A stretch of 64,000 bases of DNA, taken from assembly GCA_024640315.1 (NCBI GenBank), contig JAHEFF010000006.1:10169-74168 (forward strand). The letters are read 5' to 3'. Source of the stretch: Woeseiaceae bacterium. Its GTDB lineage: Bacteria > Pseudomonadota > Gammaproteobacteria > Steroidobacterales > Woeseiaceae. The notes under the pieces were generated by a model, which did no database searches, had not been told where the DNA came from, and was given only the letters and a program-made list of their open reading frames with translations. How positions within the stretch are numbered: the first letter of the stretch is position 1; each line of letters starts with the position of its first letter. Positions 25,337 through 62,701 of this stretch are shown in pieces. The position numbers and the translations under genes are program-made.

Positions 25337-25338
25337 AT

Positions 25339-30819: not shown

Positions 30820-30827
30820 CGTATCGA

Positions 30828-31607: not shown

Positions 31608-31627
31608 AACAGCCCTGAACCGCCTCT

Positions 31628-32251: not shown

Positions 32252-32292
32252 TTTGTCACAACTCCGTCCCCGCCAGATGTTTGGAGATCGAT

Positions 32293-32700
32293 TCACCTGG
32301 CGCGATCAACTGCCCGGGGAATAATGGCGGTCGACTCAATTTCGATCATCGCGTTTGGCTCAACGAGGCCTGTCACACCCACAACCGCCATCGCGGGAAA
32401 ATTCTTGCCCATGACGTCCCTGTAGGTTCGACCGATGCCGGGAAGATTATTCCGGTAATTTTCGAGGTCAGTGACATACCAGGTCATTCGCACGACATGC
32501 TCGGGACCGGCGTCCGCTTCTGCGAGGACCGCGACCGTGTTCCTGAGCGTTTGTTCCAGTTGTTCAACGAAGTCATCCGGAAACTCTCCTTTTTCATTCC
32601 AGCCAATCATGCCGGCCACGTGGACCTGCTGTCCGCTGGCAAGAATTCCATTTGAATATCCGCTTGGCCTTGACCATCCCTGCGGTAGTAAATGCTTCAT
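32293..32700 (-). CDS. ridA: RidA/YjgF-family enamine/imine deaminase
   Basis: 135 aa. GYSNGI...HVAGMIG...PAMAVVGV..L.....IEIE pattern of the YjgF/RidA fold. ATGA overlap with the ACAD stop. Confidence 0.88.
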
Positions 32701-33860: not shown

Positions 33861-33864
33861 TGCA

Positions 33865-34671: not shown

Positions 34672-34678
34672 TGTGTTC

Positions 34679-35434: not shown

Positions 35435-35480
35435 GCGAAATGCTCCAGCTTGATGGTCGCCAAATGCCCTCTGAAGTTAG

Positions 35481-43026: not shown

Positions 43027-43035
43027 TTTTTCAGG

Positions 43036-43068
43036 AAAAAAAAGGGTGCATTGCTGCACCCTTTTTAT
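43036..43068 (-). terminator. strong intrinsic (bidirectional-looking) terminator after the TBDR gene
   Basis: aaaaaaaa-gggtgca-ttgc-tgcaccc-ttttt. On the minus strand the GC stem is followed by eight T. It sits 21 nt after the TBDR stop, and its T-tract ends 9 nt before the acylase ATG. Confidence 0.7.
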
Positions 43069-47032: not shown

Positions 47033-48588
47033 GAATTCTCGCCTGTTTCACTTCTGACCAATTGCGCAGAATACGCAGCACGATCAATTTGTGCTCGAGC
47101 ACTATTGTCCGCGACGGATACCAGGATCGTCACAGCAAATGCAGCAGCAACTGAAAATAATGTGGGATAGGCGTACGGAAATATCGCCACCTTGTTACCC
47201 AGCACATTGACCCAGACCGTCGGGCTAAGGACCACCAGTACAATAACCACAACGAGCCCCGTCACGCCGCCTGCAACAGCACCCCGGGTCGTCAGGCCTC
47301 GCCAGAAAAGCGCAAGAAATATTGCCGGGAAATTAACACTCGCGGCAATAGCCAGCGCGATCGTTGATAACACTGCAACATTGACGTTCTTGAACAGAAC
47401 GCTCATGCCGATAGCAATTGCGCCAATAATGACGGTGGCAATTCGCGACACCCTGACTTCGGCGTCGTCGGAAATATCGCCCTTGCGGATGACGCGGGCA
47501 TAGAAATCATGGGCCACGGCGGCCGATGCAGACAGGAGAATTCCCGCAACGACGGCGAGAATAGTGGCGAATGCGACCGCCGCAATAAGACCAAAGAAGA
47601 TCTCGCCACCAACCAGCCGCGACAGGTAAATGGAAACCATGTTGACGCCACCACTGATCCGCCCTGCGTCGTCGACATACTCCGGCTGGCCAATCAGCAA
47701 CGCGATCGCTCCTATCCCGACGATCATGATTGCAGCTTGAAAATAACCAATAATAACAACCGCATAGCCAATGGATCGACGTGCCTGCCTGGCGTCGGGC
47801 ACAGTAAAAAAGCGCATCAACACGTGCGGCAGGCCCGCTGTTCCACAGATAAATGCCAGGCCCAGCGACACAACGCTGATCGGGTCACTGTAGAGAACCC
47901 CCGGCTGAAATATACCTTTGCCCCTCGGATGCGCGTCGCTGGCACTCCGGAAAAGCGAATCGATGCTAAAGCCGAACTTCGATAAGACGAGCACCAGCAG
48001 CACGGTACCTCCGGCGAGCAACAAAACCGCCTTGGTGACCTGAACCCATGTCGTCGCCAGCATGCCGCCGAACACCACGTAAATCGTCATCAGCGTGCCG
48101 ACAATCAGTACCGCACCCAAATAAGGAATATTAAAAAGCGTTTCGATCAGGGAGCCGGCTCCGACCATCTGCGCGATCAGGTACGGTATCGCCACCGTCA
48201 GCGTTCCGGCGGCTGCAAGCACTCGCATTCGTTCCGGCTGCAGGCGAAAAGCAACAACATCTGCAAATGTATAGCGACCGAGGTTGCGCATTCGGTCCGC
48301 AAACGCGAAAAGAATGAATGCCCAACTGACGGTAATCGCCACCGTGTAGAGCATCGCATCGGCGCCGCCAATGAATGCGAGGCCGGTCAGGCCGAGAAAC
48401 GTCGCCGCCGACATGAAATCGCCTGCCAGCGCGAGACCATTCTGGAAGCCGGTGATTTTTCCGCCCGCCGTGTAAAACTCACCGGCGGAATGCGTTTTCT
48501 TTGCGGCCCACCAGGTAATGAACAGACTCAGCGATACGAATGCAACGAATACGACGATCGCCGTGACGTTTGTGCCACCGCCGATCAT
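47029..48588 (-). CDS. sodium:solute symporter (ActP-like monocarboxylate permease)
   Basis: 519 aa, about 13 TM. FYTAGG...GLALAGDFMSAATFLG is typical of ActP-type SSS. ATGA coupling on both sides. Confidence 0.88.
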   Translation of the reverse strand: MIGGGTNVTAIVVFVAFVSLSLFITWWAAKKTHSAGEFYTAGGKITGFQNGLALAGDFMSAATFLGLTGLAFIGGADAMLYTVAITVSWAFILFAFADRMRNLGRYTFADVVAFRLQPERMRVLAAAGTLTVAIPYLIAQMVGAGSLIETLFNIPYLGAVLIVGTLMTIYVVFGGMLATTWVQVTKAVLLLAGGTVLLVLVLSKFGFSIDSLFRSASDAHPRGKGIFQPGVLYSDPISVVSLGLAFICGTAGLPHVLMRFFTVPDARQARRSIGYAVVIIGYFQAAIMIVGIGAIALLIGQPEYVDDAGRISGGVNMVSIYLSRLVGGEIFFGLIAAVAFATILAVVAGILLSASAAVAHDFYARVIRKGDISDDAEVRVSRIATVIIGAIAIGMSVLFKNVNVAVLSTIALAIAASVNFPAIFLALFWRGLTTRGAVAGGVTGLVVVIVLVVLSPTVWVNVLGNKVAIFPYAYPTLFSVAAAFAVTILVSVADNSARAQIDRAAYSAQLVRSETGENS

Positions 48589-48881
48589 CGGTGTTTATCC
48601 TGCTCGAGTGCCTCGTCCGCCTCAAGCCGATTCACCACACGGACATAGACCATTGAAAGCACGATTGACATCGCAATGATCAAAAACCCGACCGCCATGC
48701 CCCAGGGAAGCGCGATGCCCATGAAGGGTGCCGCATACGCTTCAGCGAAATAGATGCCGCCGATTCCCCAAACAAGGTAGGCGCCGATCAACAAACCGGA
48801 TAGTCCCCAGCGCCACCGGCTGCGGCGGACGAGAAGTCTCTGAAATTCCGGATCCTTAAGTAGTTCCGTCTCTCCGCCCAT
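48585..48881 (-). CDS. DUF485 (YjcH-like) inner-membrane protein
   Basis: 98 aa with two TM helices and FQRLLVRRSRWRW. It is the usual partner immediately upstream of ActP-type symporters. Confidence 0.85.
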   Translation of the reverse strand: MGGETELLKDPEFQRLLVRRSRWRWGLSGLLIGAYLVWGIGGIYFAEAYAAPFMGIALPWGMAVGFLIIAMSIVLSMVYVRVVNRLEADEALEQDKHR

Positions 48882-48894: not shown

Positions 48895-49341
48895 TTAGTT
48901 ATTTTTTGTCAGCTCGGCTGCCAGCAATGGTAGCTCATCGGCCAGGCTGTTGAGGATAAGTTCACGCGCTGCGGCGGGATCAGGTTCAGGATCGTCTCTT
49001 AACGAGGCCACTTCCGCTTCGGTAAACGGCTCAAACCGGTCGGGCAACTGACCCTCACTGTAAGTCTGTAACAACCAGTTCATCAGCTCGGCGATTTCGC
49101 TGTCACTCAAAGCAGACCTCGACACACCAGGCACCCGGATCAGGAAGTCCCTTCCCTCTTGCGAGTGAAGGAAGTAACCGGAGAAATCTTTAATCGGTGG
49201 CACCCTGCCTTCGAAGCCAGCGGCCTCCGGCAAATGACATCCCTGGCAATGCAACATGAAATTTACCTCTGCACGCCGGTCATCGGCGAGCGCACAGCTG
49301 CCCAGCAGCGCAACGAGGACTGTCAGTCGGGCTAGGGCCAC
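48895..49341 (-). CDS. monohaem c-type cytochrome (paralogue of 49332..49832)
   Basis: 148 aa, GTG start, signal peptide. Single CQGCH, followed by LPEAAGFEGRVPPI...GRDFLIRV, which is shared with the neighbouring cytochrome. Confidence 0.75.
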   Translation of the reverse strand: MALARLTVLVALLGSCALADDRRAEVNFMLHCQGCHLPEAAGFEGRVPPIKDFSGYFLHSQEGRDFLIRVPGVSRSALSDSEIAELMNWLLQTYSEGQLPDRFEPFTEAEVASLRDDPEPDPAAARELILNSLADELPLLAAELTKNN

Positions 49342-49832
49342 TTGTCGCCGTGCTTGCTGACCAACTCACTTCTGAGCTGACCGGCACCTGCCGGACTCTT
49401 CTGCGTAATGCCAGCCTGAACCTTTTCGACTTCTTCCGCGGCAAATGGCTCGATCCCGGATGAATCCGCATCATTTAGCTCGAAGACGACGTAGTTAAGC
49501 GCTGCCGCAATATCATCTGCTGACATTGCGCCCGTGTTGCCTGCCATAACACCGAAGTATTGCATGCCGTCGACCTTTATCGTGCCCATGAGACCGTAGG
49601 TCACCACGGTGATGAGATAGTCACGCCCACCCTCCAGTCCCGCAATCGTTGCCGCCCGATTCCTGATCGGCGGAAAAGCACCGGGCACGCCAGCGCCATC
49701 AGGCAGATGGCAAGCCGAGCACGTCGCGAAAGCGTCGGCGCTGTATTCGCCTGAACTTTCGTCCGCAACCGACAAGCGCCCGATCGAAATCGCAAGCCAG
49801 CCCGCTACTACAATCCAGAGAAAGCGTTTCAT
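49332..49832 (-). CDS. monohaem c-type cytochrome
   Basis: Trimmed to MKRFLWIVVAGWLAISIG (ATGA overlap with the light-chain stop). Single CSACH, followed by LPDGAGVPGAFPPI...GRDYLITV. Confidence 0.8.
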   Translation of the reverse strand: MKRFLWIVVAGWLAISIGRLSVADESSGEYSADAFATCSACHLPDGAGVPGAFPPIRNRAATIAGLEGGRDYLITVVTYGLMGTIKVDGMQYFGVMAGNTGAMSADDIAAALNYVVFELNDADSSGIEPFAAEEVEKVQAGITQKSPAGAGQLRSELVSKHGDKWP

Positions 49833-50353
49833 TCGTCGAGCGCCGCGCCGATGACAATCGCAGTCGAGCAGTGATAAGTATTGCTGCTCGTGCCAAGGCA
49901 CCAATTGAGGTCATTGGAAACGCGCGGGTTGTATACCGGCCGATCACCTTCATTCCGCTGACAGAGGCAGTTGCCGCAGGACGACTTACCGCAGCAGTCG
50001 TTGTACGAAATGATATAGCTCTTGCCATCCACCGGGTTCTCGCAGGTACCGATCCAGGTAATCGGTGACATTTCGGTTCCTGGTGGGCAGGAATTCATCG
50101 AACCACCGCAGCAGCCGCAAAGAAAACCATCGATCGCACAGTAGCGCCAGTACTCGCAGCTTGCAGGATCACCCTCTTCCCGGGGAGCAGGGTTTTCCTG
50201 CGATCGGGCAACGGGAAGAAGCGGTACGGTGACGGCACCACCGACAACCACGCCTGCCACTTTGCCAAGGAAACCGCGCCTCGACGTTTTTTGCGAAATA
50301 CTGCGTGCAGTATTTTCCGCTGTCTTATCAAGCCATCCATCCAGCCATTTCAT
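49829..50353 (-). CDS. mauA: TTQ-dependent amine dehydrogenase, light (small) subunit
   Basis: 174 aa. Tat-like leader SRRGFLGKVAG and Cys-rich core CEYWRYCAIDGFLCGCCGG..CPPGT..SPITWIGTCENP..DCCGK..NDLNWCLG. Both TTQ tryptophans are conserved relative to MauA/AauA as I recall them. Confidence 0.9.
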   Translation of the reverse strand: MKWLDGWLDKTAENTARSISQKTSRRGFLGKVAGVVVGGAVTVPLLPVARSQENPAPREEGDPASCEYWRYCAIDGFLCGCCGGSMNSCPPGTEMSPITWIGTCENPVDGKSYIISYNDCCGKSSCGNCLCQRNEGDRPVYNPRVSNDLNWCLGTSSNTYHCSTAIVIGAALDE

Positions 50354-50373: not shown

Positions 50374-51510
50374 TTATTCTGCGCCGTACAGCATCAGCAC
50401 CGTTTCGGCGGCGAAGTTGTTGAGTGTTCTCTGGTACTCGCCACTTTTGGCAGTGTATATATCCAGTTCGAGATTGACATTCGTGACCAGCAACAAAGGA
50501 TCGTCATCGTTTGTCATTCCCATGCTGATGGCAGGCAGCTGCAATTCGATGCGGTCGACGCGACGTTTATTCTCGACGTCAAATACCCACACCTCCGTGC
50601 CCGGGTCCTTGTGCGACCCTTCGTAGCCATCAGGATGCATCAATACATACATCCGGCCGTCGGAATCTCTCTCGGTCACCTGGATGCCGCCGGGTCGCCA
50701 TCCCTCGTCACCGTCGCCAAGCAATGACCATTCCCGACCCACTTCCGGTTCCGAGCCATTCAGATCAACAGGAACGACGCGACCAAGAAAAGTCGGAAAA
50801 TAGGCAACACCATCAATCATTACCGCTTTCTCCATGATCGGATCGTTGTTCGCGTCGAAGAACACGCCGGTCCTGGCAGTTGATGCCTGCTCACCGTTTT
50901 CATCGAGTTGTACGCTCATCATTGAACCATCGGTGCACAACGACGCAAAAGCGCGTCCCGCCATCGGGTAAACCAGCGAGCAACCCGGAATTGGTATTTC
51001 CGCAAGGAACTCACGATTGACGATGTCGACCACTGAAACCGATGTCGCCGGCGTGAAGTTATAAATCAACGCCAGCTTTTCGTCGTCCACCAACTGGAGG
51101 TGGTAATTCGTCGGCATGGCGCTTGCACGTTTTGGCGGGATCACAACCTCGCCAATCGGCGCCAGATTGTCCTTGCCATAGATCGTCAGTACGTCCGTGC
51201 GTTCACCGCGCGACCCCCGTGAACGAAAGGTCTCGAGAATGTACATCTCGGGCCGGGTGGTCGCCTGGGTGAACTGCGCTATGAATGCGCCATTGAATAT
51301 GCCTTTAACGCGCGTCGCCGCATCATCCGATTCCGCATCAAGCACGTAAAACTTGCCATCGCTCATGTGAAAGAAAGCCACGTCGTGGGCAATAATCCAG
51401 TGTGCCGGCCATGGCGCCGGCAAGGTCTGAATCACGCCCGTTGGTTCGGGCTGAACCTGCCCGAACGCCGACGACGAGAATATCACTGTCAATAATATTA
51501 ATTGTTTCAT
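50374..51510 (-). CDS. mauB: TTQ-dependent amine dehydrogenase, heavy (large) subunit, 7-bladed propeller
   Basis: Has RGERTD, GWRPGG and overall colinearity with MauB. Start chosen at MKQLILLTVIFSSSAFG (51510, 4 nt after the ALDH stop). The track start 51528 is the alternative. Confidence 0.87.
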   Translation of the reverse strand: MKQLILLTVIFSSSAFGQVQPEPTGVIQTLPAPWPAHWIIAHDVAFFHMSDGKFYVLDAESDDAATRVKGIFNGAFIAQFTQATTRPEMYILETFRSRGSRGERTDVLTIYGKDNLAPIGEVVIPPKRASAMPTNYHLQLVDDEKLALIYNFTPATSVSVVDIVNREFLAEIPIPGCSLVYPMAGRAFASLCTDGSMMSVQLDENGEQASTARTGVFFDANNDPIMEKAVMIDGVAYFPTFLGRVVPVDLNGSEPEVGREWSLLGDGDEGWRPGGIQVTERDSDGRMYVLMHPDGYEGSHKDPGTEVWVFDVENKRRVDRIELQLPAISMGMTNDDDPLLLVTNVNLELDIYTAKSGEYQRTLNNFAAETVLMLYGAE

Positions 51511-51514: not shown

Positions 51515-52933
51515 TTATGCCGCTGCATTGATTATCTTGATCGAGGTATATGCCGCCAGTCCCTCCTCGGCGAACTCAACACCAAGGCCCGAGCACTTAA
51601 TGCCGCCAAACGGAACATGCGGTTGAATCTCGGCATGCTTGTTGATGAATACGGTGCCCGCTTCAAGTCGCGCCGCGACCCTTGCACACTCATCCGCATC
51701 CGATCCCCATACCGATGCATCGAGACCGAAGTCGAGTGCATTTGCACGCTCGATCGCATCGTCGATATCGGTGTAGGTGATGATCGGCAGCACAGGCCCG
51801 AACTGTTCCTCGTCCACCAGGCGAACGCCGTCTGATATACCGGTTACGAAAGTCACCGGGTAGAAATAGTTGGGGCCTCCTGTCGGCTCGCCGCCTGTGA
51901 CACAGGTGCCGCCATTCGCCTTGGCGTCTTCGACCAATTCGATGACACGCTTGAACTGGCGCTCATTCTGCAGTGGCCCGAGAATGCTGCCCTCATCCAT
52001 GCCGTCGCCCATCGGAATATTCGCCGCAAACCCGGACAATGCTGCCACCGTCGCGTCGAGATCATCCTCGTGTACATAAAGTCGTTTCAGTGCCCCACAG
52101 GTCTGACCCGAGTTGATCATCGAGCCAAAGAACAGGCCTTCCGCAAACTTCGCGGGATCTTCCCCAGGCAGCAAGATGCCGGCATCGTTGCCGCCAAGCT
52201 CCAGTGTCACTGGCGTGACGCCTTCCGCCGCGCTGGCCATGACCTTTTTGCCGGTCGCGATGGAGCCGGTGAAGACGATCTTGTCGATACCTTCATGGGT
52301 CGTCAGTTCGGCACCAAGTTCGTCGCCACCGGAAACCACGTTGACCAGGCCCGGCGGCAAGACTTCGTTAAACAACTCAATCATTCGCAACGTGCTAAGC
52401 GGCGTGAACGGAGACGGTTTGATGACGACTGTGTTGCCCGTTCGAATCCCGGGAACGATATGCCAGATTGCGATGATCAGGGGCCAGTTCCACGGAGTGA
52501 TCGAGCCAACAACACCGAGCGGGACTCGTTTCTGGATCACATGCCGTTCATCACTGTCCTCGATGACTTTGTCGGGCAAACTCAATGAACCGGTATATCC
52601 CGCCCAACCGGCACAACCACCCATTTCGAACCTTGAACCAATGCCACCAAGCGGTTTGCCCTGCTCTTTGGTCAGTAACACCGCAAGCTCATCGGCGTGC
52701 TCGGTACAAACGCCGGCAATCGCATTGCAGGCGTTCACGCGTTCTTCTTCGCTGGAAAAGCGCCAGGACTTGTAAGCCTTGGCTGCTGCAGCAATTGCCT
52801 TGTCCAGGTGTTTTTTTGTGCCTACAGGTGCCTGACCGACGACCTCTTCTGTGTTTGCGGGGTTTCGAACATCCACGTAGGAATCCGCGGTTACGGTCTC
52901 CCCACCAATTGTCATCTCGTATTTCTTACTCAT
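51515..52933 (-). CDS. NAD(P)+-dependent aldehyde dehydrogenase
   Basis: 472 aa. Contains FTGS...GKKV, LELGGND and GQTCGALKRLYV (catalytic Cys). Confidence 0.92.
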   Translation of the reverse strand: MSKKYEMTIGGETVTADSYVDVRNPANTEEVVGQAPVGTKKHLDKAIAAAAKAYKSWRFSSEEERVNACNAIAGVCTEHADELAVLLTKEQGKPLGGIGSRFEMGGCAGWAGYTGSLSLPDKVIEDSDERHVIQKRVPLGVVGSITPWNWPLIIAIWHIVPGIRTGNTVVIKPSPFTPLSTLRMIELFNEVLPPGLVNVVSGGDELGAELTTHEGIDKIVFTGSIATGKKVMASAAEGVTPVTLELGGNDAGILLPGEDPAKFAEGLFFGSMINSGQTCGALKRLYVHEDDLDATVAALSGFAANIPMGDGMDEGSILGPLQNERQFKRVIELVEDAKANGGTCVTGGEPTGGPNYFYPVTFVTGISDGVRLVDEEQFGPVLPIITYTDIDDAIERANALDFGLDASVWGSDADECARVAARLEAGTVFINKHAEIQPHVPFGGIKCSGLGVEFAEEGLAAYTSIKIINAAA

Positions 52934-52946
52934 TTCGCACCTCGTT

Positions 52947-53960
52947 TCAGTGATTCAAATAATCTTCAGCAAGCTCGCAGGCTGCCGCCAGGATCATCGG
53001 CGTTAGCTCTCTCGCTGTTTCCGTCTCTTGGCGGGTATGTACCCACCCAATGTATGTAAAGCCGCGCGCCAGGAAAAAGAGCGGCAGCATTTCCAGTTCT
53101 TCATCGGTCAGTCGCCGACGTTTTCTGTAGCCGGCAATCAGCGCATCTTTTGCCTGCTGGAAGTACGATTCCTCTTGAATGAAATAGAGGGATGTCGCAA
53201 GTTCAAAAAGGTGCCAACCGAAACCGGCATCATCGAAATCGATCAGGCGCACTTCGTTGCCATCGACCATGACATTTTCCGGCGCGAAATCCGCATGGAT
53301 CATGCTGTAGTTATCCGGTGATTTCGCCAGGGCACTGAGATCCTGAAAGACCCGGTCGCGGCCGCGTTGCAGCATTTCGGTCTCTGATTTCGATGCGGCC
53401 GCCAGGTTCCAGAATTGCCCCCAGAAGGGATTCTCGCCTGCCAGTCCTTCGGCATCCCAGGCGTGGCGGACAAATCCCTCCGGCAACCGCCATGACGTTG
53501 CCTGGTTGTGAACTCTCGCCGCAAGTTCGCCAATGGCGCCGTAAGTCGATTCGACCTCGGCGATATCCGCGACGCCCTCTTCAACCGAGCCGAGTTGCTT
53601 GCCGTCGATCCATTCGAACAGGTCGATTTGCAGCGTGCCCGGCAGAGTGTCGCCCGAATAGTCGACAAACAGATCGCCCGACAGCGCCGGAATGACATTC
53701 GGCACCAGGACACCTGATTCCGACAGCGCCTGCATCCATTGCAGCTCGGAGCGCAATTCGTCGTCGGTGTGGTAGCCGTGCCGGTGCAAACGCAGCGCCG
53801 CCCTGAAGTCGTCCTTTTCCACCTTGAATACCGCATTTTCGCGATGCTTGATCAGCTTGAGCGAAGCACCGCTGAGACCCCATTGTTGCAGCGCGTCGTG
53901 GCCGGCAAGTTCGAGTCGTCTCACCCGTTGCTCAGGCGTCAGTTTAAAGAAATCAGTCAT
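52947..53960 (-). CDS. APH/homoserine-kinase-type-II fold small-molecule kinase (amino-alcohol kinase candidate)
   Basis: 337 aa. Catalytic loop HADFAPENV (HxDxxxxN) and metal-binding IDFDD. Confidence 0.85.
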   Translation of the reverse strand: MTDFFKLTPEQRVRRLELAGHDALQQWGLSGASLKLIKHRENAVFKVEKDDFRAALRLHRHGYHTDDELRSELQWMQALSESGVLVPNVIPALSGDLFVDYSGDTLPGTLQIDLFEWIDGKQLGSVEEGVADIAEVESTYGAIGELAARVHNQATSWRLPEGFVRHAWDAEGLAGENPFWGQFWNLAAASKSETEMLQRGRDRVFQDLSALAKSPDNYSMIHADFAPENVMVDGNEVRLIDFDDAGFGWHLFELATSLYFIQEESYFQQAKDALIAGYRKRRRLTDEELEMLPLFFLARGFTYIGWVHTRQETETARELTPMILAAACELAEDYLNH

Positions 53961-55237
53961 ACCGCCGCCATCACTTCGTCGAGAGTTGCTGCCAGAAAAT
54001 CCGCGTTATCTTTGGAGAAACACAGTGGCGGTCGTAGCTTCAGCACGTTGTCGTGCTCACCTATCTTGCTCATCAGCACACCCTTGTGGCGCATTGCATT
54101 GACGATAGTCCGCGCCTTGTCTGCCGCTGGCTCCTTAGTCTCGCGATCGTTGACCAGGTCTATACCGAAGAACAGGCCACTCCCGCGAACGTCGCCGATC
54201 ATGTCGTGCCGGCTTTGGAGTTCTTTGAATTTTTCAAGCACGTAGTCACCGACTTCAGCTGCATTGGCGACAAGTCCTTCGTCGTCGATGACGTCCAGAA
54301 CTGCCATTGCTACGGCGCAGGAAACAGGGTTGCCGCCGAACGTATTGAAATACATCTCGTGACGTCGATAGTTGTCGAGCAATTCTCCCCTTGCGACCAC
54401 CCCGGAGACAGGGTGGCCGGCACCCATGGGTTTACCGAGTGTGACAATATCCGGAATAACGCCGCTTTCTTCATAGCCCCACCAGCGCCCGGTACGACCG
54501 AAACCCGACTGGACTTCGTCCGCGATATAAACGCCACCGGCCGCGTGAACGTAGTCGATCGCTTTGCGCATATAGCCGTCCGGAATGTTTGGCAAGCCTT
54601 CGTTCGCAAAAATAGGACAGGCAATCATGCCTGCGAGCTTGATTCCGTTGGCTTCCAGGGAGTTGATCGCTGTTTCGATCTCGTCGGCATACACATCGGC
54701 CAGCGCTTCGCCTTCCAGGCCGTCGGCCGCACGATATGAATCGGGCCAGGACACCATGCGAATATTGTCGCCATAGCCACCAACCGGTTCGAATATGGAG
54801 CTGAGCTGCGCAACTGCCGTTGTATTGCCGTGGTAGGTCGCGTTGGTACAAATAAAACCCTCACCACCTGAATTTACCCGGGCGATCCGCAGAGCAAGAT
54901 CGTTTGCTTCACTACCCGTGCAAGCGATCGCGACGCGATCGAGGCCGTCATCAAACTTGTTGAGCAGACATTCTGCGTAGTCGAGTATGTTTTCGTGCAA
55001 ATAACGCGTATGCGTGTTGAGCGTACCTGCCTGCGCGCAAAGCGCTCCGACAACACGTGGATGGCAATGACCGACACAGGGCACATTGTTATAGCAGTCG
55101 AGATATTTGTTTCCGTCCGCATCGTGCAACCAGACGCCCTCGCCCCTGACGAGGTGAACCGGGGCGTCATAGAACAGGGGGTTGCCCGGCCCGAGGAGCC
55201 GTTCCCGTCGCTCGACCAGTTCCTGCACATTCGTCAT
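53957..55237 (-). CDS. class-III aminotransferase-fold PLP enzyme, AGXT2L-like (O-phospho-amino-alcohol phospho-lyase candidate)
   Basis: Trimmed to MTNVQELVERR; the 68-aa Arg-rich extension in the track overlaps the SDR gene. Has IADEVQSGFGRTG and PDIVTLGKPMGAGHP (PLP lysine). Confidence 0.87.
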   Translation of the reverse strand: MTNVQELVERRERLLGPGNPLFYDAPVHLVRGEGVWLHDADGNKYLDCYNNVPCVGHCHPRVVGALCAQAGTLNTHTRYLHENILDYAECLLNKFDDGLDRVAIACTGSEANDLALRIARVNSGGEGFICTNATYHGNTTAVAQLSSIFEPVGGYGDNIRMVSWPDSYRAADGLEGEALADVYADEIETAINSLEANGIKLAGMIACPIFANEGLPNIPDGYMRKAIDYVHAAGGVYIADEVQSGFGRTGRWWGYEESGVIPDIVTLGKPMGAGHPVSGVVARGELLDNYRRHEMYFNTFGGNPVSCAVAMAVLDVIDDEGLVANAAEVGDYVLEKFKELQSRHDMIGDVRGSGLFFGIDLVNDRETKEPAADKARTIVNAMRHKGVLMSKIGEHDNVLKLRPPLCFSKDNADFLAATLDEVMAAV

Positions 55238-55238
55238 G

Positions 55239-56051
55239 TCAGGAAGATCCCTCCAGGTCCTTGATGCCTTCCATTTCTTCAAGAAACACCGGGCTCTCCG
55301 GCAAGGTTGAACCGCCGTCGATACAAATCGTCTGCCCGGTGATGTAACGCGCCTCGTCGCTGGCGAGATAGAGCATGCAATAAGCGATGTCCTCCGGCGC
55401 ACCCATGTAGCCGCTCGGAATATATTTCGCCATCTGTGCAAGTCCTTCCTCGTCCGCCAGCAATTCCATCGCAGCGGTCCGGATATACCCCGGCTCTACA
55501 CCGTTGACGGTTATGTTCTCGCGCGCCAGCTCCAGCGCCGCCGTTTTAATGAATGCGTTCATGCCACCTTTGGATGCGGCATAGTAGGAAGTGCCCGGCA
55601 TCGCCACTCGCGGACCGGTAACAGACGACGTAAACAGGAGCCGGCCACCGCCACGTTTCCTGAAATGCGGGATCACGGCTTTTGAAAACCGGAAGCAGGC
55701 TTTCAGGTTCACCGACAACACGGTTTCGAGATCCTCTTCGTTGTAGGAATCGACCGGTCCGCCGAGGAACGATGCCGCGTTGTGCAACATGATGTCGACA
55801 CCGCCCCATTTGTCGACGGTTTCAGCTACGGCGCGGTCGACGCTCGCGACATCACCGATATCGATACCACACAATTCCGCTTCGCCACCGGACGCGCGAA
55901 TGTCATCGACAGTTCGCTGTCCGTTTTCCGGTGTGCGATTGACCACCATGACCCTGGCCCCGGCGCTGGCAAAAACCCGCGCAATTCCGGCGCCGATGCC
56001 CTGACCGGAACCCGTCACGATCGCTATTTTTCCACTGAGATCTGCAAACAT
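55239..56051 (-). CDS. short-chain dehydrogenase/reductase
   Basis: Trimmed to MFADLSGKIAIVTGSGQGIG. Has NAAS and YAASKGG. Confidence 0.87.
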   Translation of the reverse strand: MFADLSGKIAIVTGSGQGIGAGIARVFASAGARVMVVNRTPENGQRTVDDIRASGGEAELCGIDIGDVASVDRAVAETVDKWGGVDIMLHNAASFLGGPVDSYNEEDLETVLSVNLKACFRFSKAVIPHFRKRGGGRLLFTSSVTGPRVAMPGTSYYAASKGGMNAFIKTAALELARENITVNGVEPGYIRTAAMELLADEEGLAQMAKYIPSGYMGAPEDIAYCMLYLASDEARYITGQTICIDGGSTLPESPVFLEEMEGIKDLEGSS

Positions 56052-56055: not shown

Positions 56056-57252
56056 TTAATCCGTAACGGCGGCGGCCGCACCAAATGTTTTTGACTGCAT
56101 CAGTACCGGCGGCAATATCAATAGCAGGCTGAGAACGAAGAGGCCTGCACCGAACCAGTTGACGTTGATGTACTCGCCTTCCGAAATGACGGATGCGGCA
56201 AGTGCGGGACCAATCGCAAGTCCGACCATCTGCATGGCGACGGCATACACAACAACCCTGCCACGCCGGTCGAAACTGGCCATCGCGCCGAGGAGAAAGG
56301 GATGGGTCATGTTCCAAAGGAAGTTATAGACACCGACAGCCAGTGCAAAGACGATAAATTCGAAGGTGCCGAAAAGAAAATACAGACAAAGTGCACCGCC
56401 AAGAATACCGACTGTCAATGGAATCGAACGACCGACCTGATGGGCAATGACTGCCGCAAGTAATGCGCCACCGATGCCGGCAAATTGCGAAATCATGAGC
56501 CCGTTGGCAACCGCCTGCTCGCTCAGGCCGCCGGAAACGCCGATGAGGAATAAATACGCCCAGACAACGCCCTGCGCCATGAAATACGCGAGCATTGCGA
56601 ATAGCGCCAGGCCTTTCATTTGCGGCGACAGGTTGACCGCGTCCGCCTCCACATGTGCGTCGACCTCACCCGATACCGGGAAGTTTCTGATGAATGGAAC
56701 TGCCGCGAGCGGAAACAGCGCGAAGAACCAGATCACACCGTTAAAGCCGAACAGCTCATACGCGGTTGGCATTGCCCAAAGCACAATAGCGCCATAGGTG
56801 AGCACCCACATAATCAGAAAGCCAAAGTTTCGATCGGGGTTTTTGGTTAAACCCACAGCAGCAAAACTTAGTGACACAAGACTGCCGGCACCCAGCCCTG
56901 CGATGAACCTGAGTGCAACAAAAGCGTTGAGGTCAGTGCTCACCGTGCAGAGAAGGTTTGCCAGAAACATCACAAGCAGCGACCAGAAAACGACTTTTCG
57001 CCAGTTCACACGATGCGCCACAAAAGTCATCAGTATGGTCGTTGCGGCGAGGCCAAACATTTCTGCCGATGCGACATACCCTGCGCCCTGATCGTCGAAT
57101 CCGAGATACACGACCAGGCCCTGCACAAATCCCGGCTGCACGATAAATACTTCAGGCGCGATGACACCGACGAGGAACATGCTGAACAAGGCGCCTCGTG
57201 AATTGAGGTCCACCGGGTGGTCGTTAGCGAAAACCCTGTTAAGTATCGCCAT
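56056..57252 (-). CDS. MFS transporter
   Basis: 398 aa, about 12 TM. Paralogue of 61417..62589 (shared QPGF[VI]QGLV.YLG and SAEMFGLA). Confidence 0.85.
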   Translation of the reverse strand: MAILNRVFANDHPVDLNSRGALFSMFLVGVIAPEVFIVQPGFVQGLVVYLGFDDQGAGYVASAEMFGLAATTILMTFVAHRVNWRKVVFWSLLVMFLANLLCTVSTDLNAFVALRFIAGLGAGSLVSLSFAAVGLTKNPDRNFGFLIMWVLTYGAIVLWAMPTAYELFGFNGVIWFFALFPLAAVPFIRNFPVSGEVDAHVEADAVNLSPQMKGLALFAMLAYFMAQGVVWAYLFLIGVSGGLSEQAVANGLMISQFAGIGGALLAAVIAHQVGRSIPLTVGILGGALCLYFLFGTFEFIVFALAVGVYNFLWNMTHPFLLGAMASFDRRGRVVVYAVAMQMVGLAIGPALAASVISEGEYINVNWFGAGLFVLSLLLILPPVLMQSKTFGAAAAVTD

Positions 57253-57256: not shown

Positions 57257-58942
57257 CTAGTAGCCGCTTACCCAGTCGGGAATAATCACGTTGTTCGCCT
57301 TTGAATACTCTTCCCACATTGCTTTTAACGCGGCAACGGTCTCCGGATGATCAAGCGAGACGTCATTCGATTCGCCCGGGTCTTCATCAATATTAAAAAG
57401 CTGCCAGTCGTCATTGCCATATGGCGCAGGCATGTGAACGAGTTTCCATTCGCCGCGTCGGATAACGCGTTTGCCAAATAGTTCCATCCCCGTCACCCGA
57501 TCCCTGGCAGCCGAACTCTCACCGCGCAGAATTGGCAGGAACGATTGCCCTGTCATCGGCTCGATGGGTCGACCCTGGTATTCATTGCCCGGATGCCTGA
57601 CGTCGGCGATTTCGAGAATTGTTGGCGTAATATCCTTGATGAATACGAATTCATCGACGAGTTCCGGCTCCCCGACCAGGCTCGGTAAACGGACAAATGC
57701 GGCAACACGAGTACCACCTTCTGTCGGGAATGCTTTGTGCAAGCGAAATGCTGGTGAGCCCGCATTCGCCCAGTTCGGCCCGTACAGAACATAGGAGCCC
57801 GGTCGTCCCATCGCCTCGTAACTAAAGTCATGGGTCGAATCTATTGTCTTGCGGATATCCGGAAACAGATCCATTGACCAGGTTTCATCGAGATCATGGC
57901 CCTCCGGACCATTGTCGGACAGGAAAATGATCACCGTATTGTCGAGTTTGCCGCTCTCTTCGAGGTAATCGATCAGGCGCCCTGTATGCCGATCGACTTC
58001 GTTGATCATCGCGGCATAGATCTCCATCGCTCGCATTTCTGTCTTTTGCTGTGCAGTGGTTAGCTCGTCCCACGGCCTTTCCTTGGGCGAACGAGCGCTG
58101 CGACGTGCATCAGCCGGGACAATTCCCATTTCCTTCAGGCGTTCGAGACGGGCATCTGCAATCGCGTCATAGCCTGAATCGTATCTCCCCGCCTGCCGCG
58201 CAATCGCATCATCCGGCGCCTGCAGCGGCCAGTGTGGTGCGGTAAACGACAGATAGCCGAAGAAAGGTTGCTCCGGCTCACTGTCATCACTCAGGTACCG
58301 GATCATCTGATCAACGTAGTATTCTGTTGAATAGTCAAAATCGCCCGGCAAGGCGTCCAGTTTGACGCCGTCTTGCGAATAGTTTGCCTTGACGTCGGGC
58401 GAAGGCGCGTAGGCCGGCCGCATGTCCCCGAAGTGACTCGCGCCACCGGTATCAAGAACGAAAGATCGCTCAAAACCGCGATACGCAGCACCTTTGCCAA
58501 CACCGGATCCGAGGTGCCACTTGCCTGTCATGTAGGTGCGGTAGCCGGCGTCTTGCAGCAACGTTGGCAACGAAACAACGCGCTCGTTCAGAAAACCTTC
58601 ATAGCCTGGCTGCCCTGTCTGATTGGGAGCCAGTTCCTCGAGCATATTTCCAAGCCCGGCAAGATGTGAATCAACACCGGTCAGCAGCATCGACCGACTT
58701 GGTGAGCATGTGGACGCGGCATGAAAGTTGGTAAATCGAATGCCTTCAAGTGCGAGACGATCGAGATTTGGCGTTGCGATCTCGCCACCGAAGCTGCCGA
58801 GATCAGAAAAACCCATATCGTCGACAACGATGAGCAATATGTTGGGCCGATCCGGAGCGGCGTCAGGCGATACCGTTTCCGGGCCCTCGCCCATACAGGC
58901 GGCCAGAAGAAGAATGATCGATAACTGAATTAGACGTCGCAT
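57257..58942 (-). CDS. arylsulfatase (Cys-type), lipoprotein
   Basis: 561 aa. Lipobox ILLLAAC, NILLIVVDDMGFSDLG, the FGly motif STCSPSRSMLLTG, and GKWHLG. Confidence 0.9.
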   Translation of the reverse strand: MRRLIQLSIILLLAACMGEGPETVSPDAAPDRPNILLIVVDDMGFSDLGSFGGEIATPNLDRLALEGIRFTNFHAASTCSPSRSMLLTGVDSHLAGLGNMLEELAPNQTGQPGYEGFLNERVVSLPTLLQDAGYRTYMTGKWHLGSGVGKGAAYRGFERSFVLDTGGASHFGDMRPAYAPSPDVKANYSQDGVKLDALPGDFDYSTEYYVDQMIRYLSDDSEPEQPFFGYLSFTAPHWPLQAPDDAIARQAGRYDSGYDAIADARLERLKEMGIVPADARRSARSPKERPWDELTTAQQKTEMRAMEIYAAMINEVDRHTGRLIDYLEESGKLDNTVIIFLSDNGPEGHDLDETWSMDLFPDIRKTIDSTHDFSYEAMGRPGSYVLYGPNWANAGSPAFRLHKAFPTEGGTRVAAFVRLPSLVGEPELVDEFVFIKDITPTILEIADVRHPGNEYQGRPIEPMTGQSFLPILRGESSAARDRVTGMELFGKRVIRRGEWKLVHMPAPYGNDDWQLFNIDEDPGESNDVSLDHPETVAALKAMWEEYSKANNVIIPDWVSGY

Positions 58943-59002: not shown

Positions 59003-61345
59003 CTAGAACGACAAACGTGCGGTAAGACCGAACATGACCGGCGGCGCATAAAACGTTGTCACGCCAAGGTCACCGAGGTCCAGCGAATACATTTTGTAGG
59101 TCTCATCGGTGAAATTCCGGACCCACGCCGTCGCACTGAATCGCTCTGAGTCACTCATATAAGTGAGACGGGCATTCGAGACGTTGTACGCTTTCTGCAC
59201 CGTGCCGGTTCCGTTCGTTACCTCGAGGAACTGGTCATCGTTCCAGTTACCGTCGATCTGGGCCGCAATATTGCCCCCCAGGGCGTCGAAGTTATAACGG
59301 ATCAGGTAGTTGAAGCTGAGTGGCGGCGCATTCGGAAACTCGACATTGTTGATGTCAGCCGGCGAAGGTGCTCCACCAACCGGCGAATTAACGCCGGCAA
59401 TTCTGTCAACTTCGGTATCCATGACGGCGGCACCAAGCATGATGTCCCAGTTGTCCGTCGGGAACAGGTACCACTCGATTTCGCCGCCGACCGCCGATGC
59501 ATCGGAGTTGCCGACAAACGGACCGCCACCGGCCAGCGAGAATGCCTGGTAGTCTTGGTAGTCGTAGTAATAAACCGTCGCATTCAGGCGCGAACGCTCA
59601 AAGTCGGACTTGAATCCCGCCTCGTAAGCAAGTACGACTTCCTCATTGTGACGGAAGTTAACCTCCGAGATATTGGCGCCGACACCAGTGGACCAGTTGC
59701 CGCCCTTGATGCCACGGTTGACGGAACCGAAGATAATGGTCGCATCCGAGAGCTGGTAATTGAGCGCAAGACGTCCGGCCCAGTCGCCATAGTCAATCTC
59801 GTCGACACCCGGATTCAGGGCTGCTCGTGCAGCGCTGGACTCGACAAGCAGGGCGGTCGGATTGAAATTATCCCTGAAGAAGATCTGCTGATTGATATCC
59901 TTGTCGTCCTGCGACCAGCGGAGGCCCGCGGTCAGAGTCAGGCTATCCGACAGATCGAAATCCGTCTGGCCGAATATTGACCAGTTCCTCGAATTGAGCA
60001 GGTACAACTGGTCGCTGACGGCACCTTCAAAACCGTTGAACGGATTAGCGGTCGGTATACCCGTTTCGACACCACCTGCCGCGAGCACCTTGCCTGCAAT
60101 CAGCAGGTTGCCGAACGCGGGAGCACCGGTCACCGTTGTACCGTTGTCACCTTCGATGTCCATATAGAAGGCGCCAACCTGCCAGCGTGATTTGTCAGTG
60201 TCGCCGGACCAGCGAAGCTCCTGCGACCATTGTGAGTAGTCGATAAAAGTCTGGAATGTCAGGATCGGCACAGCAAGTGCGTCTCCGTCTTCGTCATAGA
60301 ATTTATCGATGCCCAGGTAATTGGTAATCGAGGTGAACTCAGTCCCGTTGTCCATCGAGTAGTCAAAGCGCGCAGTCAGGCTGGTCTGCTCACGATTCAG
60401 AATACCGGGATGCTCCGCGTAGTTAAGGTGCTCGTCCGTAATCTGGCCGAACAAATCGATGACGCCGGGGCTGGTTACGGCCCTGCCGTACTGGTCCGTC
60501 GGGCACAATCCGTTTGCATCCAGCTCGCAGTTCTCGAAGACGTAGCCTCCTGTCGGGACGTCATTGTCCTCGGCATACTTAACCCAGAAGTTGCCCTGCA
60601 ACTTGTCGGAGAAATCGACCTGCATCGTTGCACGGAGGCCGTACCCGTCCGCACCACCGATGTCCTGTCCGCTGCCCGGGAACAGGAGCGGCCCGCCACC
60701 CGGCAGGAATGTATCGACGGACTCAACGTAGCCATCCATCTCCGACCAGCGGCCGGCAACCCTGGCGCGGACGTTGTCGCTCAGGCTCCCGCCTACCGCG
60801 AATTCGAGACCTGTGCGGCCGTAATCACCCACCTCGGCCTCGACATAGCCATTGGTATCCTCGTCGGAGGCATCCTGGCTGATGTAATGAATCAGACCAC
60901 CCGTCGCGTTGCGGCCAAACAGCGTGCCCTGCGGGCCACGCAATACCTCGACGCGCTTCATGTCGAACATCTGCCCGCTTATGCCATTCATTGATGCCAC
61001 ATAGGCATCATCCATGTATACGGCGATCGGCCCTTCCAGGTTATCGGTGAAAGAGTTCTGCGAGATACCGCGAATGTTGAAAATCGTCAGGTTCGGCGAC
61101 CAGGCATTCAATGACAGCGCCGGAATCTGCTGCGTGATTTCCGTGAAGTCCTTGATGCCAAGCGCATTCAGCTGATCGCCGGTCAGCGCCGTTACAGAAA
61201 TCGGAATCTCCTGGAGATTCTGTTCCCGTTTCTGCGCCGTAACGACCACTTCCTCAAGTATCTGGGCCGAGCCACTTGCCGGTAATCCGACCGCTGCAAT
61301 TGCCGCGAACAATATCGACGGCTTCCATAGGTTGTTAACTTTCAT
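59003..61345 (-). CDS. TonB-dependent receptor
   Basis: 780 aa with signal peptide, plug motifs (EEVVVTAQKREQNLQEIP, RVEVLRGPQGTLFGRN) and a terminal ..RLSF. Confidence 0.92.
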   Translation of the reverse strand: MKVNNLWKPSILFAAIAAVGLPASGSAQILEEVVVTAQKREQNLQEIPISVTALTGDQLNALGIKDFTEITQQIPALSLNAWSPNLTIFNIRGISQNSFTDNLEGPIAVYMDDAYVASMNGISGQMFDMKRVEVLRGPQGTLFGRNATGGLIHYISQDASDEDTNGYVEAEVGDYGRTGLEFAVGGSLSDNVRARVAGRWSEMDGYVESVDTFLPGGGPLLFPGSGQDIGGADGYGLRATMQVDFSDKLQGNFWVKYAEDNDVPTGGYVFENCELDANGLCPTDQYGRAVTSPGVIDLFGQITDEHLNYAEHPGILNREQTSLTARFDYSMDNGTEFTSITNYLGIDKFYDEDGDALAVPILTFQTFIDYSQWSQELRWSGDTDKSRWQVGAFYMDIEGDNGTTVTGAPAFGNLLIAGKVLAAGGVETGIPTANPFNGFEGAVSDQLYLLNSRNWSIFGQTDFDLSDSLTLTAGLRWSQDDKDINQQIFFRDNFNPTALLVESSAARAALNPGVDEIDYGDWAGRLALNYQLSDATIIFGSVNRGIKGGNWSTGVGANISEVNFRHNEEVVLAYEAGFKSDFERSRLNATVYYYDYQDYQAFSLAGGGPFVGNSDASAVGGEIEWYLFPTDNWDIMLGAAVMDTEVDRIAGVNSPVGGAPSPADINNVEFPNAPPLSFNYLIRYNFDALGGNIAAQIDGNWNDDQFLEVTNGTGTVQKAYNVSNARLTYMSDSERFSATAWVRNFTDETYKMYSLDLGDLGVTTFYAPPVMFGLTARLSF

Positions 61346-62589: not shown

Positions 62590-62672
62590 GTCTGTCCTTG
62601 CTAAGAGGCACCCTGAATCGCTCGCAGGGCGAATACAATCTGATGAGATTCTATGAGTTTGGCTTAAAAATA

Positions 62673-62701
62673 TTGACAATTCACGGCAATTTTTTGATAA
62701 A
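62673..62701 (+). promoter_or_regulatory. sigma70-type promoter candidate (TTGACA-N17-GATAAA) for the AraC-family gene
   Basis: A consensus -35 and a 4/6 -10, 34 nt upstream of ATG 62735, in the 145-bp divergent region. A second ATTGAC copy occurs at 62701..62706. Confidence 0.3.

Follow-up and report, generated by a model that had tools for sequence, protein, structure and literature searches.

In the stretch of DNA from a Woeseiaceae bacterium that was analyzed here (64,000 nucleotides, hereafter the window), four genes between positions 51515 and 56051 encode a short-chain dehydrogenase/reductase (SDR), a class-III aminotransferase-fold enzyme dependent on pyridoxal phosphate (PLP), an APH-fold kinase and an aldehyde dehydrogenase (ALDH), and they are followed on the same strand by the genes of a periplasmic amine dehydrogenase with a tryptophan tryptophylquinone (TTQ) cofactor. 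Based on the predicted functions and arrangement of these genes, the locus is probably an operon for primary-amine catabolism in two compartments, in which a periplasmic TTQ route and a cytoplasmic kinase/lyase route would meet at one aldehyde, R-CH2-CHO. A preliminary description of the locus had given the positions of the four genes, separated by a 1-nt gap, an ATGA overlap and a 13-nt gap, and both the open reading frames (ORFs) and our reading of the DNA bear this out. The SDR/lyase junction reads TGA-C-ATG, the lyase and kinase genes overlap in ATGA, and the kinase stop TGA is followed by 13 nt containing GAGG and then by the ATG of the ALDH gene. All of the motifs named in that description were found in the translations, namely YAASK in the SDR, IADEVQSGFGRTG and PDIVTLGKPMGAGHP in the PLP enzyme, HADFAPENV and IDFDD in the kinase, and ELGGND and GQTCGA in the ALDH. 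Since none of the four translations begins with a signal peptide, this branch was assigned to the cytoplasm.

The PLP enzyme matched the Pfam family Aminotran_3 (PF00202) with an E-value of 4e-76 over residues 27-420. When it was compared with the PDB, the top match was the A1RDF1 phospholyase of Arthrobacter (5g4i; 7e-123, 414 bits, 46% identity) and the second was human ETNPPL (6tor; 2e-106, 360 bits, 43% identity), the pair of phospho-lyases in this fold whose structures have been solved, whereas the remaining class-III enzymes scored 209 bits or less, the next being a racemase and dialkylglycine decarboxylase at 1e-60. By score, the enzyme thus falls with the AGXT2L1/2-type lyases and not with the true transaminases. 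Its PLP lysine lies in TLGKPMGAGHP, which aligns with GKPMGNGHP of 5g4i and 6tor, and its C-terminal NVLKLRPP aligns with both structures in the shared pattern NVLK(L/M/I)(R/K)PP. At each point that can be tested from sequence, the agreement supports the prediction of an O-phospho-amino-alcohol phospho-lyase of the ETNPPL/A1RDF1 clade. Furthermore, the lyase matched the C-terminal half of the NCBIfam kinase-lyase fusion PRK06148 (1e-153), and in the fusion families PRK06148 and PRK06149 the N-terminal part is matched by the kinase and the C-terminal part by the lyase. Such fusion supports, as independent evidence of the "Rosetta-stone" kind, a joint action of the two enzymes.

The kinase belongs to the Pfam family APH (PF01636; 5e-26), and its best PDB match was 6ef6 (1e-51, residues 23-336, 32% identity), followed by amicoumacin kinase at 5e-18. 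HADFAPEN, representing HxDxxxxN, and IDFDD, representing the metal-binding DFD, were invariant in an alignment that included the 6ef6 sequence. These features support the prediction of an APH-fold amino-alcohol kinase, for which 32% identity to 6ef6 leaves the substrate unfixed. The SDR (Pfam adh_short_C2, 3e-59) was most similar in the PDB to 6ci8 and 6ci9 of Mycobacterium smegmatis (3e-59, 42% identity, 204 bits for 6ci8). It carries TGxxxGIG and YAASK, together with an Arg after β2 that aligned with the Arg of 6ci8, and is predicted to be an NADP(H)-dependent amino-ketone reductase/amino-alcohol dehydrogenase. We take 6ef6 and 6ci8/6ci9 to be the (S)-1-amino-2-propanol kinase and dehydrogenase of the Rhodococcus/Mycobacterium microcompartment (RMM) of M. 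smegmatis.

The ALDH matched Pfam Aldedh at 8e-132, and 8yen was its best PDB match (1e-113). Its best NCBIfam matches were aminobutyraldehyde dehydrogenase (ABALDH), phenylacetaldehyde dehydrogenase StyD and betaine aldehyde dehydrogenase (BADH), all under cut-off. Since the score lies below the cut-off of every specific model, the substrate is not nameable from the family models. The top family and PDB matches were all non-acylating NAD(P)+ enzymes (ABALDH, StyD, BADH and ALDH1/2), and the ALDH is predicted to be an enzyme of this type that would serve as a sink for the aldehydes of both branches. As such, the earlier proposal of an APH-fold kinase feeding an AGXT2L-type phospho-lyase, with an amino-ketone reductase and an ALDH, is supported by the PDB relatives, by the fusion families and by the adjacency of the lyase and kinase genes in other genomes, as counted below.

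The presence of a TTQ amine dehydrogenase in the same array had also been proposed, and it proved true: both subunits were identified by Pfam and PDB matches and are coupled after the ALDH gene. If the heavy chain starts at 51510, the gap after the ALDH stop is 4 nt, and the heavy- and light-chain genes are 20 nt apart. The heavy chain matched the aromatic amine dehydrogenase (AADH) of Alcaligenes faecalis in the PDB at 2e-52 and 181 bits, in contrast with 2e-30 and 109 bits for methylamine dehydrogenase (MADH). The light chain matched the AADH small subunit at 2e-46, 53% identity and 161 bits, compared with 153 bits for 3c75 and 136 bits for P. denitrificans-type chains. With both subunits closer to AADH, the enzyme is best classified as the aromatic-amine type, not the methylamine type. 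In the light chain, SPITW aligns with SPISW of 2agl and NDLNWC with its NDVNWC, and the Cys framework is kept; we take the tryptophans of these two motifs to be the TTQ-forming pair. No cupredoxin gene was found in the window.

Tight coupling extends past 51515-56051 on both sides of the same strand. From 5' to 3', the order is a major facilitator superfamily (MFS) paralogue, TonB-dependent receptor, sulfatase, MFS transporter, SDR, lyase, kinase, ALDH, TTQ heavy chain, TTQ light chain, two cytochromes c, DUF485 protein, symporter and amidase. The gaps from the sulfatase gene to the amidase gene range from -14 to +20 nt, and those of the two upstream genes are 60-71 nt. The ALDH gene is placed between the kinase/lyase and TTQ modules, 13 nt from the former and 4 nt from the latter. 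Promoter and terminator scans over 44.8-63 kb returned sites no more numerous than in shuffled sequence, and the operon boundaries were therefore drawn from gene spacing alone.

Considering these assignments, we propose the following mechanism. An amino alcohol, R-CH(OH)-CH2-NH2, would be imported by the adjacent MFS transporter or made from an α-amino ketone by the NADP(H)-type SDR, which could bring α-amino ketones into the pathway or interconvert them with amino alcohols. The APH-fold kinase would phosphorylate the hydroxyl at the expense of ATP, and the PLP phospho-lyase would eliminate the phosphate, so that hydrolysis of the enamine/imine would yield R-CH2-CHO, NH4+ and inorganic phosphate (Pi). 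This route would need no vitamin B12, no amino acceptor and no microcompartment. In the periplasm, the AADH-like TTQ enzyme would convert R-CH2-CH2-NH2 to R-CH2-CHO and pass the electrons to the two monohaem cytochromes c, and the same ALDH would oxidize the aldehyde from either branch to R-CH2-COOH. Upstream of both branches, the TonB-dependent receptor may capture conjugates, from which the arylsulfatase, similar to the Pseudomonas aeruginosa arylsulfatase PAS, and, in this genome, the amidases would probably free the amines; downstream, the ActP-family symporter may take up the acid and, for aryl R, PaaK may take arylacetate onward. TTQ amine dehydrogenases turn R-CH2-NH2 into R-CHO, and from R-CH(OPO3)-CH2-NH2 the ETNPPL-type lyases produce R-CH2-CHO along with Pi and NH4+. 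Because of this established TTQ and 1,2-elimination chemistry, an amine and its β-hydroxy analogue would give the same aldehyde, which would explain why a single coupled ALDH gene lies between the two modules.

For the comparison with other genomes, the kinase alignment was scanned against species-representative genomes (one per species) and the best 80 loci were kept; at least 580 of the 600 candidate stretches encoded a kinase relative. Neighborhoods were counted over 82 non-redundant loci, and shell genes were searched for over 84 loci. The lyase gene was directly upstream of the kinase gene in 67 of the 82 loci, 77 of which have sequence there. An orthologous SDR (at least 55% identity) stood beside the pair in 25 loci, and an ALDH of at least 45% identity and a TTQ dehydrogenase were found within 10 kb in 16 and 10 loci, respectively. 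MFS relatives, counted at 50% identity or more to the gene at 56056-57252 or 45% or more to its paralogue at 61417-62679, lay within 10 kb of the kinase gene in 17 loci. TonB-dependent receptor orthologues (at least 40% identity) occurred in 11, often with a sulfatase, and a PAS-like sulfatase was near the kinase gene in seven loci from several lineages. An unbiased clustering of the neighbors in the 82 loci returned LuxR, AraC and TetR regulators, SnoaL-like proteins, FAD oxidoreductases and chemoreceptors, none of which names a substrate.

The preliminary description had stated that the window holds no shell gene of a bacterial microcompartment (BMC). When PduA and EutN sequences were used as tblastn queries for BMC-H and BMC-P genes, the window returned noise only (E-values of 0.8 or more), and none of the 84 related loci carried a shell gene, with chance matches at E-values of 0.28 or more over the window and the loci together. 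Neither shell family (PF00936 for BMC-H/BMC-T and PF03319 for BMC-P) was present among the genes called in loci L001-L004. The absence of shell genes is thus confirmed, but the module is no oddity on that account, since this absence is the rule for it in Proteobacteria; the shell-less kinase/lyase module is common and not novel in itself.

The lyase-kinase pair by itself was found in many Pseudomonas species as well as in Halomonas, Marinobacterium and Sphingobium, among others. The pair also occurs on 92 plasmids, mainly of Rhizobium, Agrobacterium, Ensifer and Sinorhizobium (for example, records NZ_CP034782.1 and AP027342.1; loci L085 and L086), where the two genes are annotated merely as "phosphotransferase" and "aminotransferase". 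In Pseudomonas sp. MPC6, the pair is flanked by insertion sequence elements and three MFS transporters. Six loci (L070, L073, L074, L075, L078 and L079) have kinase homologues of 42-44% identity beside class-III PLP enzymes only 26-30% identical to the lyase, which could represent separate kinase/PLP-enzyme pairings whose chemistry differs. A SnoaL-like protein recurs beside the module in several lineages, in some loci together with an FAD/NAD(P)-binding oxidoreductase of about 650 residues (L001:2489-4956; L041:1951-3939; L072:1399-1908; L076:6773-7339), and neither is encoded in the window. Near the pair in Pseudomonas, there is a dCache-type methyl-accepting chemotaxis protein (L048:12627-14771 and L054:4907-7072), which may mediate chemotaxis to the amine substrate of the pathway.

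Marine metagenomes are rich in kinase homologues of 66-99% identity, which come from Woeseiaceae wherever they are named. Metagenome-assembled genomes (MAGs) of Woeseiaceae with kinase identities of 66-81% keep the array of MFS, SDR, lyase, kinase, ALDH, TTQ heavy and light chains, cytochrome c, DUF485 protein and sodium:solute symporter (SSS). On long contigs with homologues of 67-80% identity, the retained array begins with the TonB-dependent receptor ahead of the MFS gene, while the sulfatase, amidase and acylase come and go. The same type of array was found in L012, labelled Thiotrichales. A TTQ dehydrogenase and the cytochrome within 10 kb of a lyase-kinase pair also occur in other arrangements. 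In Pseudomonas akapageensis (L048), the heavy-chain, MauE, MauD, light-chain and cytochrome c genes are followed by a divergent ALDH and an AraC gene and then by the series APC permease-lyase-kinase, and a gammaproteobacterial MAG (L065) has heavy chain-(MauD)-light chain-cytochrome c-TonB-dependent receptor-MFS-SDR-lyase-kinase. In the alphaproteobacterium Croceicoccus sediminis (L076), the order heavy chain-MauE-MauD-light chain-cytochrome c is followed by an SDR and then by SnoaL-APC permease-lyase-kinase. TonB-dependent receptors lie nearby, as do an AraC regulator, an amidohydrolase of the deacetylase family and an ALDH. In another gammaproteobacterial MAG (L034), there is only a partial heavy-chain gene at the contig edge. 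Such rearrangement across classes points to a functional link between the TTQ enzyme and the lyase-kinase pair rather than to chance adjacency. The amidohydrolase of L076 (17163-18332) is of the histone-deacetylase family and the acetylpolyamine-amidohydrolase type. Its gene comes after one for a TonB-dependent receptor, close to the TTQ and lyase-kinase genes, and it is possibly another deconjugating enzyme like the amidases of the window.

The TTQ genes of these loci differ in what lies between the subunit genes. A MauE gene and a gene for a MauD-like redoxin are present there in L048 (1932-3110) and L076 (3496-4649), and in L065 (1895-2341) the MauD-like gene alone was detected. In the window, the two subunit genes have no mauE or mauD between them, and the same is true of the Woeseiaceae-type loci (L001-L005, L010 and L012). 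When MauE and MauD of L048 were used as queries, MauE had no match in the window, MauD had one marginal match at 1585-1989 (E-value 0.001, 22% identity), and neither matched anything in the Woeseiaceae loci. Nor was a dihaem ORF resembling MauG seen in the window. A homologue of the second cytochrome follows the light-chain gene in every examined TTQ-bearing locus that has this position present, including L048, L065 and L076.

As for the nature of R, aryl groups (octopamine or phenylethanolamine, with tyramine or phenylethylamine as the TTQ substrates) are our tentative choice, at somewhat less than an even chance; C2-C4 alkyl groups are a lesser possibility, and other functionalized skeletons make up the rest. 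The preliminary description had offered ethanolamine, 1-amino-2-propanol and an aryl-ethanolamine, and the AADH type of the dehydrogenase and the neighboring genes tilt this list toward the last without settling it. The gene context favors aryl-ethanolamines over aminopropanol in several respects. Besides the AADH-type enzyme, a PAS-type arylsulfatase recurs with the TonB-dependent receptor in several lineages, and the presence of a TonB-dependent receptor at all fits an aryl substrate. Both PaaK and the indoleacetamide-hydrolase-type amidase score over their cut-offs (PaaK at 710 bits, equivalog cut-off 646), and there is an aromatic island in the window. In L005, genes for PaaK and indolepyruvate oxidoreductase (IOR) directly follow the SSS gene, and on a Sphingobium plasmid the series AraC-lyase-kinase-SDR lies beside genes for protocatechuate 4,5-cleavage.

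Several observations weigh against a two-branch aryl-amine operon. In 72 of the 82 lyase-kinase loci, no TTQ dehydrogenase was found within 10 kb, from which it follows that each module can stand alone and that the linkage could be regulatory only. The window has no mauE, mauD or MauG-like ORF, and TTQ dehydrogenase activity would therefore depend on maturation genes elsewhere. The identities to characterized enzymes, 32-46%, are enough for a reaction type and not for a substrate, and for the SDR the margin is small, with 3pk0, an uncharacterized mycobacterial SDR, reaching 181 bits compared with 204 for 6ci8. The SSS is closest to acetate/propionate-type ActP, which suits small aliphatic R as well as aryl R, and the aromatic neighbors (PaaK, amidase and acylase) vary between relatives.

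Small aliphatic substrates are a possible, though less likely, alternative. The locus would then be a shell-less equivalent of RMM/Aut, converting aminoacetone via 1-amino-2-propanol and its phosphate to propionaldehyde and propionate, or ethanolamine to acetate, with the TTQ enzyme acting on propylamine or ethylamine and the ActP-like symporter handling the acid. The RMM locus has the same enzyme set, the symporter belongs to the ActP subfamily (706 bits, cut-off 750), and among solved structures the SDR and the kinase come closest to 6ci8 and 6ef6, which we take to be the RMM aminopropanol enzymes. However, the kinase is just 32% identical to 6ef6, the TTQ enzyme is not of the MADH type, and with porin-permeant C2-C3 amines as substrates neither a TonB-dependent receptor nor lipoprotein hydrolases of the periplasm would be expected. 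Production of double-chiral amino alcohols has been reported for the RMM SDR's orthologue in Rhodococcus erythropolis. This enzyme also accepts aryl amino ketones and makes aryl amino alcohols from them, so that orthology would not fix a small substrate either.

It is unlikely that the kinase/lyase and TTQ genes are independent pathways lying side by side in a catabolic island, having regulation in common and no common aldehyde. In favor of this reading are the 72 loci mentioned above that have no TTQ dehydrogenase within 10 kb and the many unrelated catabolic genes of the window. On the other side stand the position of the ALDH gene between the two modules with its short gaps, the retention of the full array across Woeseiaceae at 66-81% kinase identity, and the rearranged pairing in three to four other lineages, one of them alphaproteobacterial. 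The two branches would also converge for any R, and another β-hydroxy amine might accordingly be the substrate, such as 5-hydroxylysine (the case of PHYKPL), 4-amino-3-hydroxybutyrate or 5-amino-4-hydroxyvalerate, which the SDR would form from 5-aminolevulinate, with lysine, γ-aminobutyrate (GABA) or 5-aminovalerate, respectively, as the TTQ substrate. The ALDH matches include succinate-semialdehyde and aminobutyraldehyde dehydrogenase families, and the fused kinase-lyase families presumably include hydroxylysine-type enzymes. Nevertheless, this seems improbable, since the array has no gene for lysine, GABA or glutarate catabolism and no amino-acid-type transporter, and we know of no TTQ dehydrogenase that uses ω-amino acids. 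Finally, public records label the pair merely "aminotransferase class III" and "phosphotransferase" or "Ser/Thr kinase RdoA", but an ordinary ω-transaminase beside an unrelated antibiotic or protein kinase is so improbable that this reading was dropped, given that about 150 bits or more (some 45 orders of magnitude in E-value) separate the phospho-lyases from all transaminases, racemases and decarboxylases in the PDB, that the two genes overlap and are adjacent in 67 of the 77 loci with upstream sequence, and that both enzymes occur as one fused polypeptide family.

The features of the array and its flanks are collected in Table 1. A homologue of the divergent AraC-family regulator, 63% identical, has the same position in L002; QhpR, which the regulator resembles, controls quinohaemoprotein amine dehydrogenase. 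The DUF485 and SSS genes are kept after the cytochromes in Woeseiaceae loci. The amidase gene is the last of the tight array and a variable accessory, absent from L003. After it comes a 209-nt gap and then genes for a second TonB-dependent receptor, an acylase-family hydrolase with weak similarity to PvdQ, PaaK and IOR-type subunits. The pair of acylase and second receptor is present in L001 and L002 and missing from L003 and L005. Farther along the minus strand, an aromatic-acid/CoA catabolic island (19609-39109) encodes the α and β subunits of a Rieske dioxygenase, an old yellow enzyme flavoprotein, AMP-ligases, thiolase-like and ChsH2-like proteins, an acyl-CoA dehydrogenase, an enoyl-CoA hydratase, β-oxidation-type proteins, SDRs, a MarR regulator, IOR α/β-like subunits and PaaK, as well as a salicylyl-CoA 5-hydroxylase-like protein (1040 bits, cut-off 1078). 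Within the island, the Rieske dioxygenase, the salicylyl-CoA 5-hydroxylase-like protein, CoA ligases and the β-oxidation-type genes lie at 19.6-35 kb. Unrelated to the kinase/lyase array, an ORF of about 800 codons on the minus strand (6138-8621) has eight CXXCH motifs and represents a multihaem cytochrome, and HemN (oxygen-independent coproporphyrinogen oxidase) and formate-tetrahydrofolate ligase, encoded at 14008-17184 on the plus strand, score over their equivalog cut-offs as housekeeping enzymes.

Table 1. Genes of the amine array and its flanks, in window coordinates.
Feature	Position	Strand	Remarks
Penicillin-acylase-family lipoprotein hydrolase and second TonB-dependent receptor	40645-43059, 43089-45347	minus	Between the amine operon and PaaK
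Lipoprotein amidase (amidase signature)	45557-47032	minus	NCBIfam "indoleacetamide hydrolase" 570 bits, cut-off 532; 4-nt overlap with SSS gene
ActP-family SSS, predicted carboxylate uptake	47029-48588	minus	Pfam SSF 1e-96; NCBIfam ActP subfamily
DUF485 small membrane protein	48585-48881	minus	Pfam DUF485 8e-13
Second monohaem c-type cytochrome, predicted electron acceptor of the TTQ enzyme	48895-49341	minus	One CXXCH (CQGCH)
Monohaem c-type cytochrome, periplasmic	49332-49832	minus	Pfam Cytochrom_C 3e-5; one CXXCH (CSACH); ATGA overlap with light-chain stop
TTQ dehydrogenase light subunit	49829-50353	minus	Pfam Me-amine-dh_L (PF02975) 4e-53; twin-arginine signal SRRGFLGK
TTQ dehydrogenase heavy (β-propeller) subunit, AADH-like	50374-51510	minus	Pfam Me-amine-dh_H (PF06433) 1e-32; Sec signal
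ALDH	51515-52933	minus	472 aa
APH-fold kinase	52947-53960	minus	337 aa
Class-III aminotransferase-fold PLP enzyme	53957-55237	minus	426 aa
SDR	55239-56051	minus	270 aa from the ATG chosen in the preliminary description
MFS transporter, predicted to import amino alcohol or amino ketone across the inner membrane	56056-57252	minus	Pfam MFS_1 3e-18; 4-nt gap to SDR gene
Lipoprotein formylglycine sulfatase	57257-58942	minus	Pfam Sulfatase 3e-55; PAS (1hdh) 6e-159; CSPSR; LAAC lipobox; 4-nt gap to MFS gene
TonB-dependent outer-membrane receptor	59003-61345	minus	Pfam Plug and TonB_dep_Rec
MFS paralogue	61417-62679	minus	First gene of the same-strand array
AraC-family regulator, QhpR-like	62735-63802	plus	Divergent; NCBIfam QhpR 219 bits, cut-off 250

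Many annotations that now read "phosphotransferase", "Ser/Thr kinase RdoA" or "class-III aminotransferase" would be corrected if the lyase-kinase pair were recognized as a module for amino-alcohol deamination that needs neither B12 nor a shell. The conserved joining with the TTQ enzyme suggests a simple principle, in which periplasmic and cytoplasmic deamination converge on one aldehyde. Woeseiaceae are a core and highly abundant group of marine sediments with a poorly known diet, and the operon suggests that amines, possibly biogenic amines in conjugated form, are among their substrates. If R is aryl, Woeseiaceae could take biogenic amines of animal detritus, whether free, sulfated or acylated, and lead them through one arylacetaldehyde into the phenylacetyl-CoA route.

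Among known systems, RMM/Aut of M. smegmatis and Rhodococcus, which acts on aminoacetone and 1-amino-2-propanol, comprises the same four activities as the window module, including a class-III "aminotransferase" and an aldehyde dehydrogenase. Unlike RMM/Aut, the locus has no BMC-H or BMC-P shell gene, and its ALDH matches non-acylating families, whereas that of RMM/Aut is described as CoA-acylating and Eut/Cut-like (EutE), a distinction drawn from family matches and descriptions and not from an RMM ALDH sequence. Furthermore, RMM/Aut has a GabP/APC permease and a GntR regulator in place of the MFS transporter, TonB-dependent receptor and AraC-type regulator seen here, and the window module belongs to a marine gammaproteobacterial host and shares one operon with a TTQ dehydrogenase. 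A1RDF1 and human ETNPPL (AGXT2L1) have the GKPMG(N/A)GHP lysine motif in common with the window lyase, for which the same 1,2-elimination is predicted. While these two enzymes act on O-phosphoethanolamine, the SDR gene next to that of the lyase points to a secondary alcohol or an amino ketone as the substrate here.

Jones, Faulkner and Turner reportedly described in 1973 an amino-alcohol kinase and an O-phosphate phospho-lyase of Erwinia and Pseudomonas that convert ethanolamine and 1-aminopropan-2-ol to acetaldehyde and propionaldehyde. That route is said to be B12-independent and shell-less like the window module, but to have no SDR, TonB-dependent receptor or amine dehydrogenase. It was defined biochemically, and we found no tie to the present genes in the literature; the Pseudomonas loci with AraC, APC permease, lyase, kinase and divergent ALDH genes plausibly encode it. 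The window module would work like RMM/Aut and the Erwinia/Pseudomonas route, and the locus is not an RMM locus. As for the periplasmic branch, the AADH of A. faecalis (aau) provides the best solved relatives of both TTQ subunits, and there, too, a small monohaem cytochrome c gene presumably follows the light-chain gene. Compared with aau, the Woeseiaceae version has no mauE/mauD-type gene between the subunit genes and no cupredoxin gene, has two cytochromes c, and lies inside a kinase/lyase operon.

The same logic is known from tyramine and octopamine catabolism in P. aeruginosa, where a tyramine dehydrogenase and an "octopamine hydro-lyase" (EC 4.2.1.87) act with 4-hydroxyphenylacetaldehyde dehydrogenase. 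There, an amine dehydrogenase and a β-hydroxy-amine lyase yield one arylacetaldehyde for a common ALDH; the lyase was described as a single hydro-lyase, in contrast with the kinase and phospho-lyase of the window. To our knowledge, no gene has been assigned to the octopamine hydro-lyase. With considerable reserve, we suggest that the operon may represent the missing genetic basis for the catabolism of aryl-ethanolamines (octopamine, phenylethanolamine and noradrenaline-type compounds), that the "octopamine hydro-lyase" may really be an ATP-dependent kinase and a PLP phospho-lyase, and that the Woeseiaceae version may be hard-wired to a TTQ AADH, a TonB-dependent receptor and arylsulfatase/amidases; if the aryl reading is true, genes would be assigned to orphan enzyme activities. 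In a literature search of incomplete coverage, we found nothing on point for the genetics of bacterial amino-alcohol kinase/phospho-lyases or for amine metabolism of Woeseia, and, in agreement with the preliminary description, no account of a kinase/lyase pair and a TTQ dehydrogenase in one operon. Taken together, the enzymes are of known kinds and their chemistry is established, and what appears to be new is the conserved joining of the four-gene module, in one operon, with a TTQ dehydrogenase of the AADH type, with cytochromes and a TonB-dependent receptor, and with predicted deconjugating enzymes.

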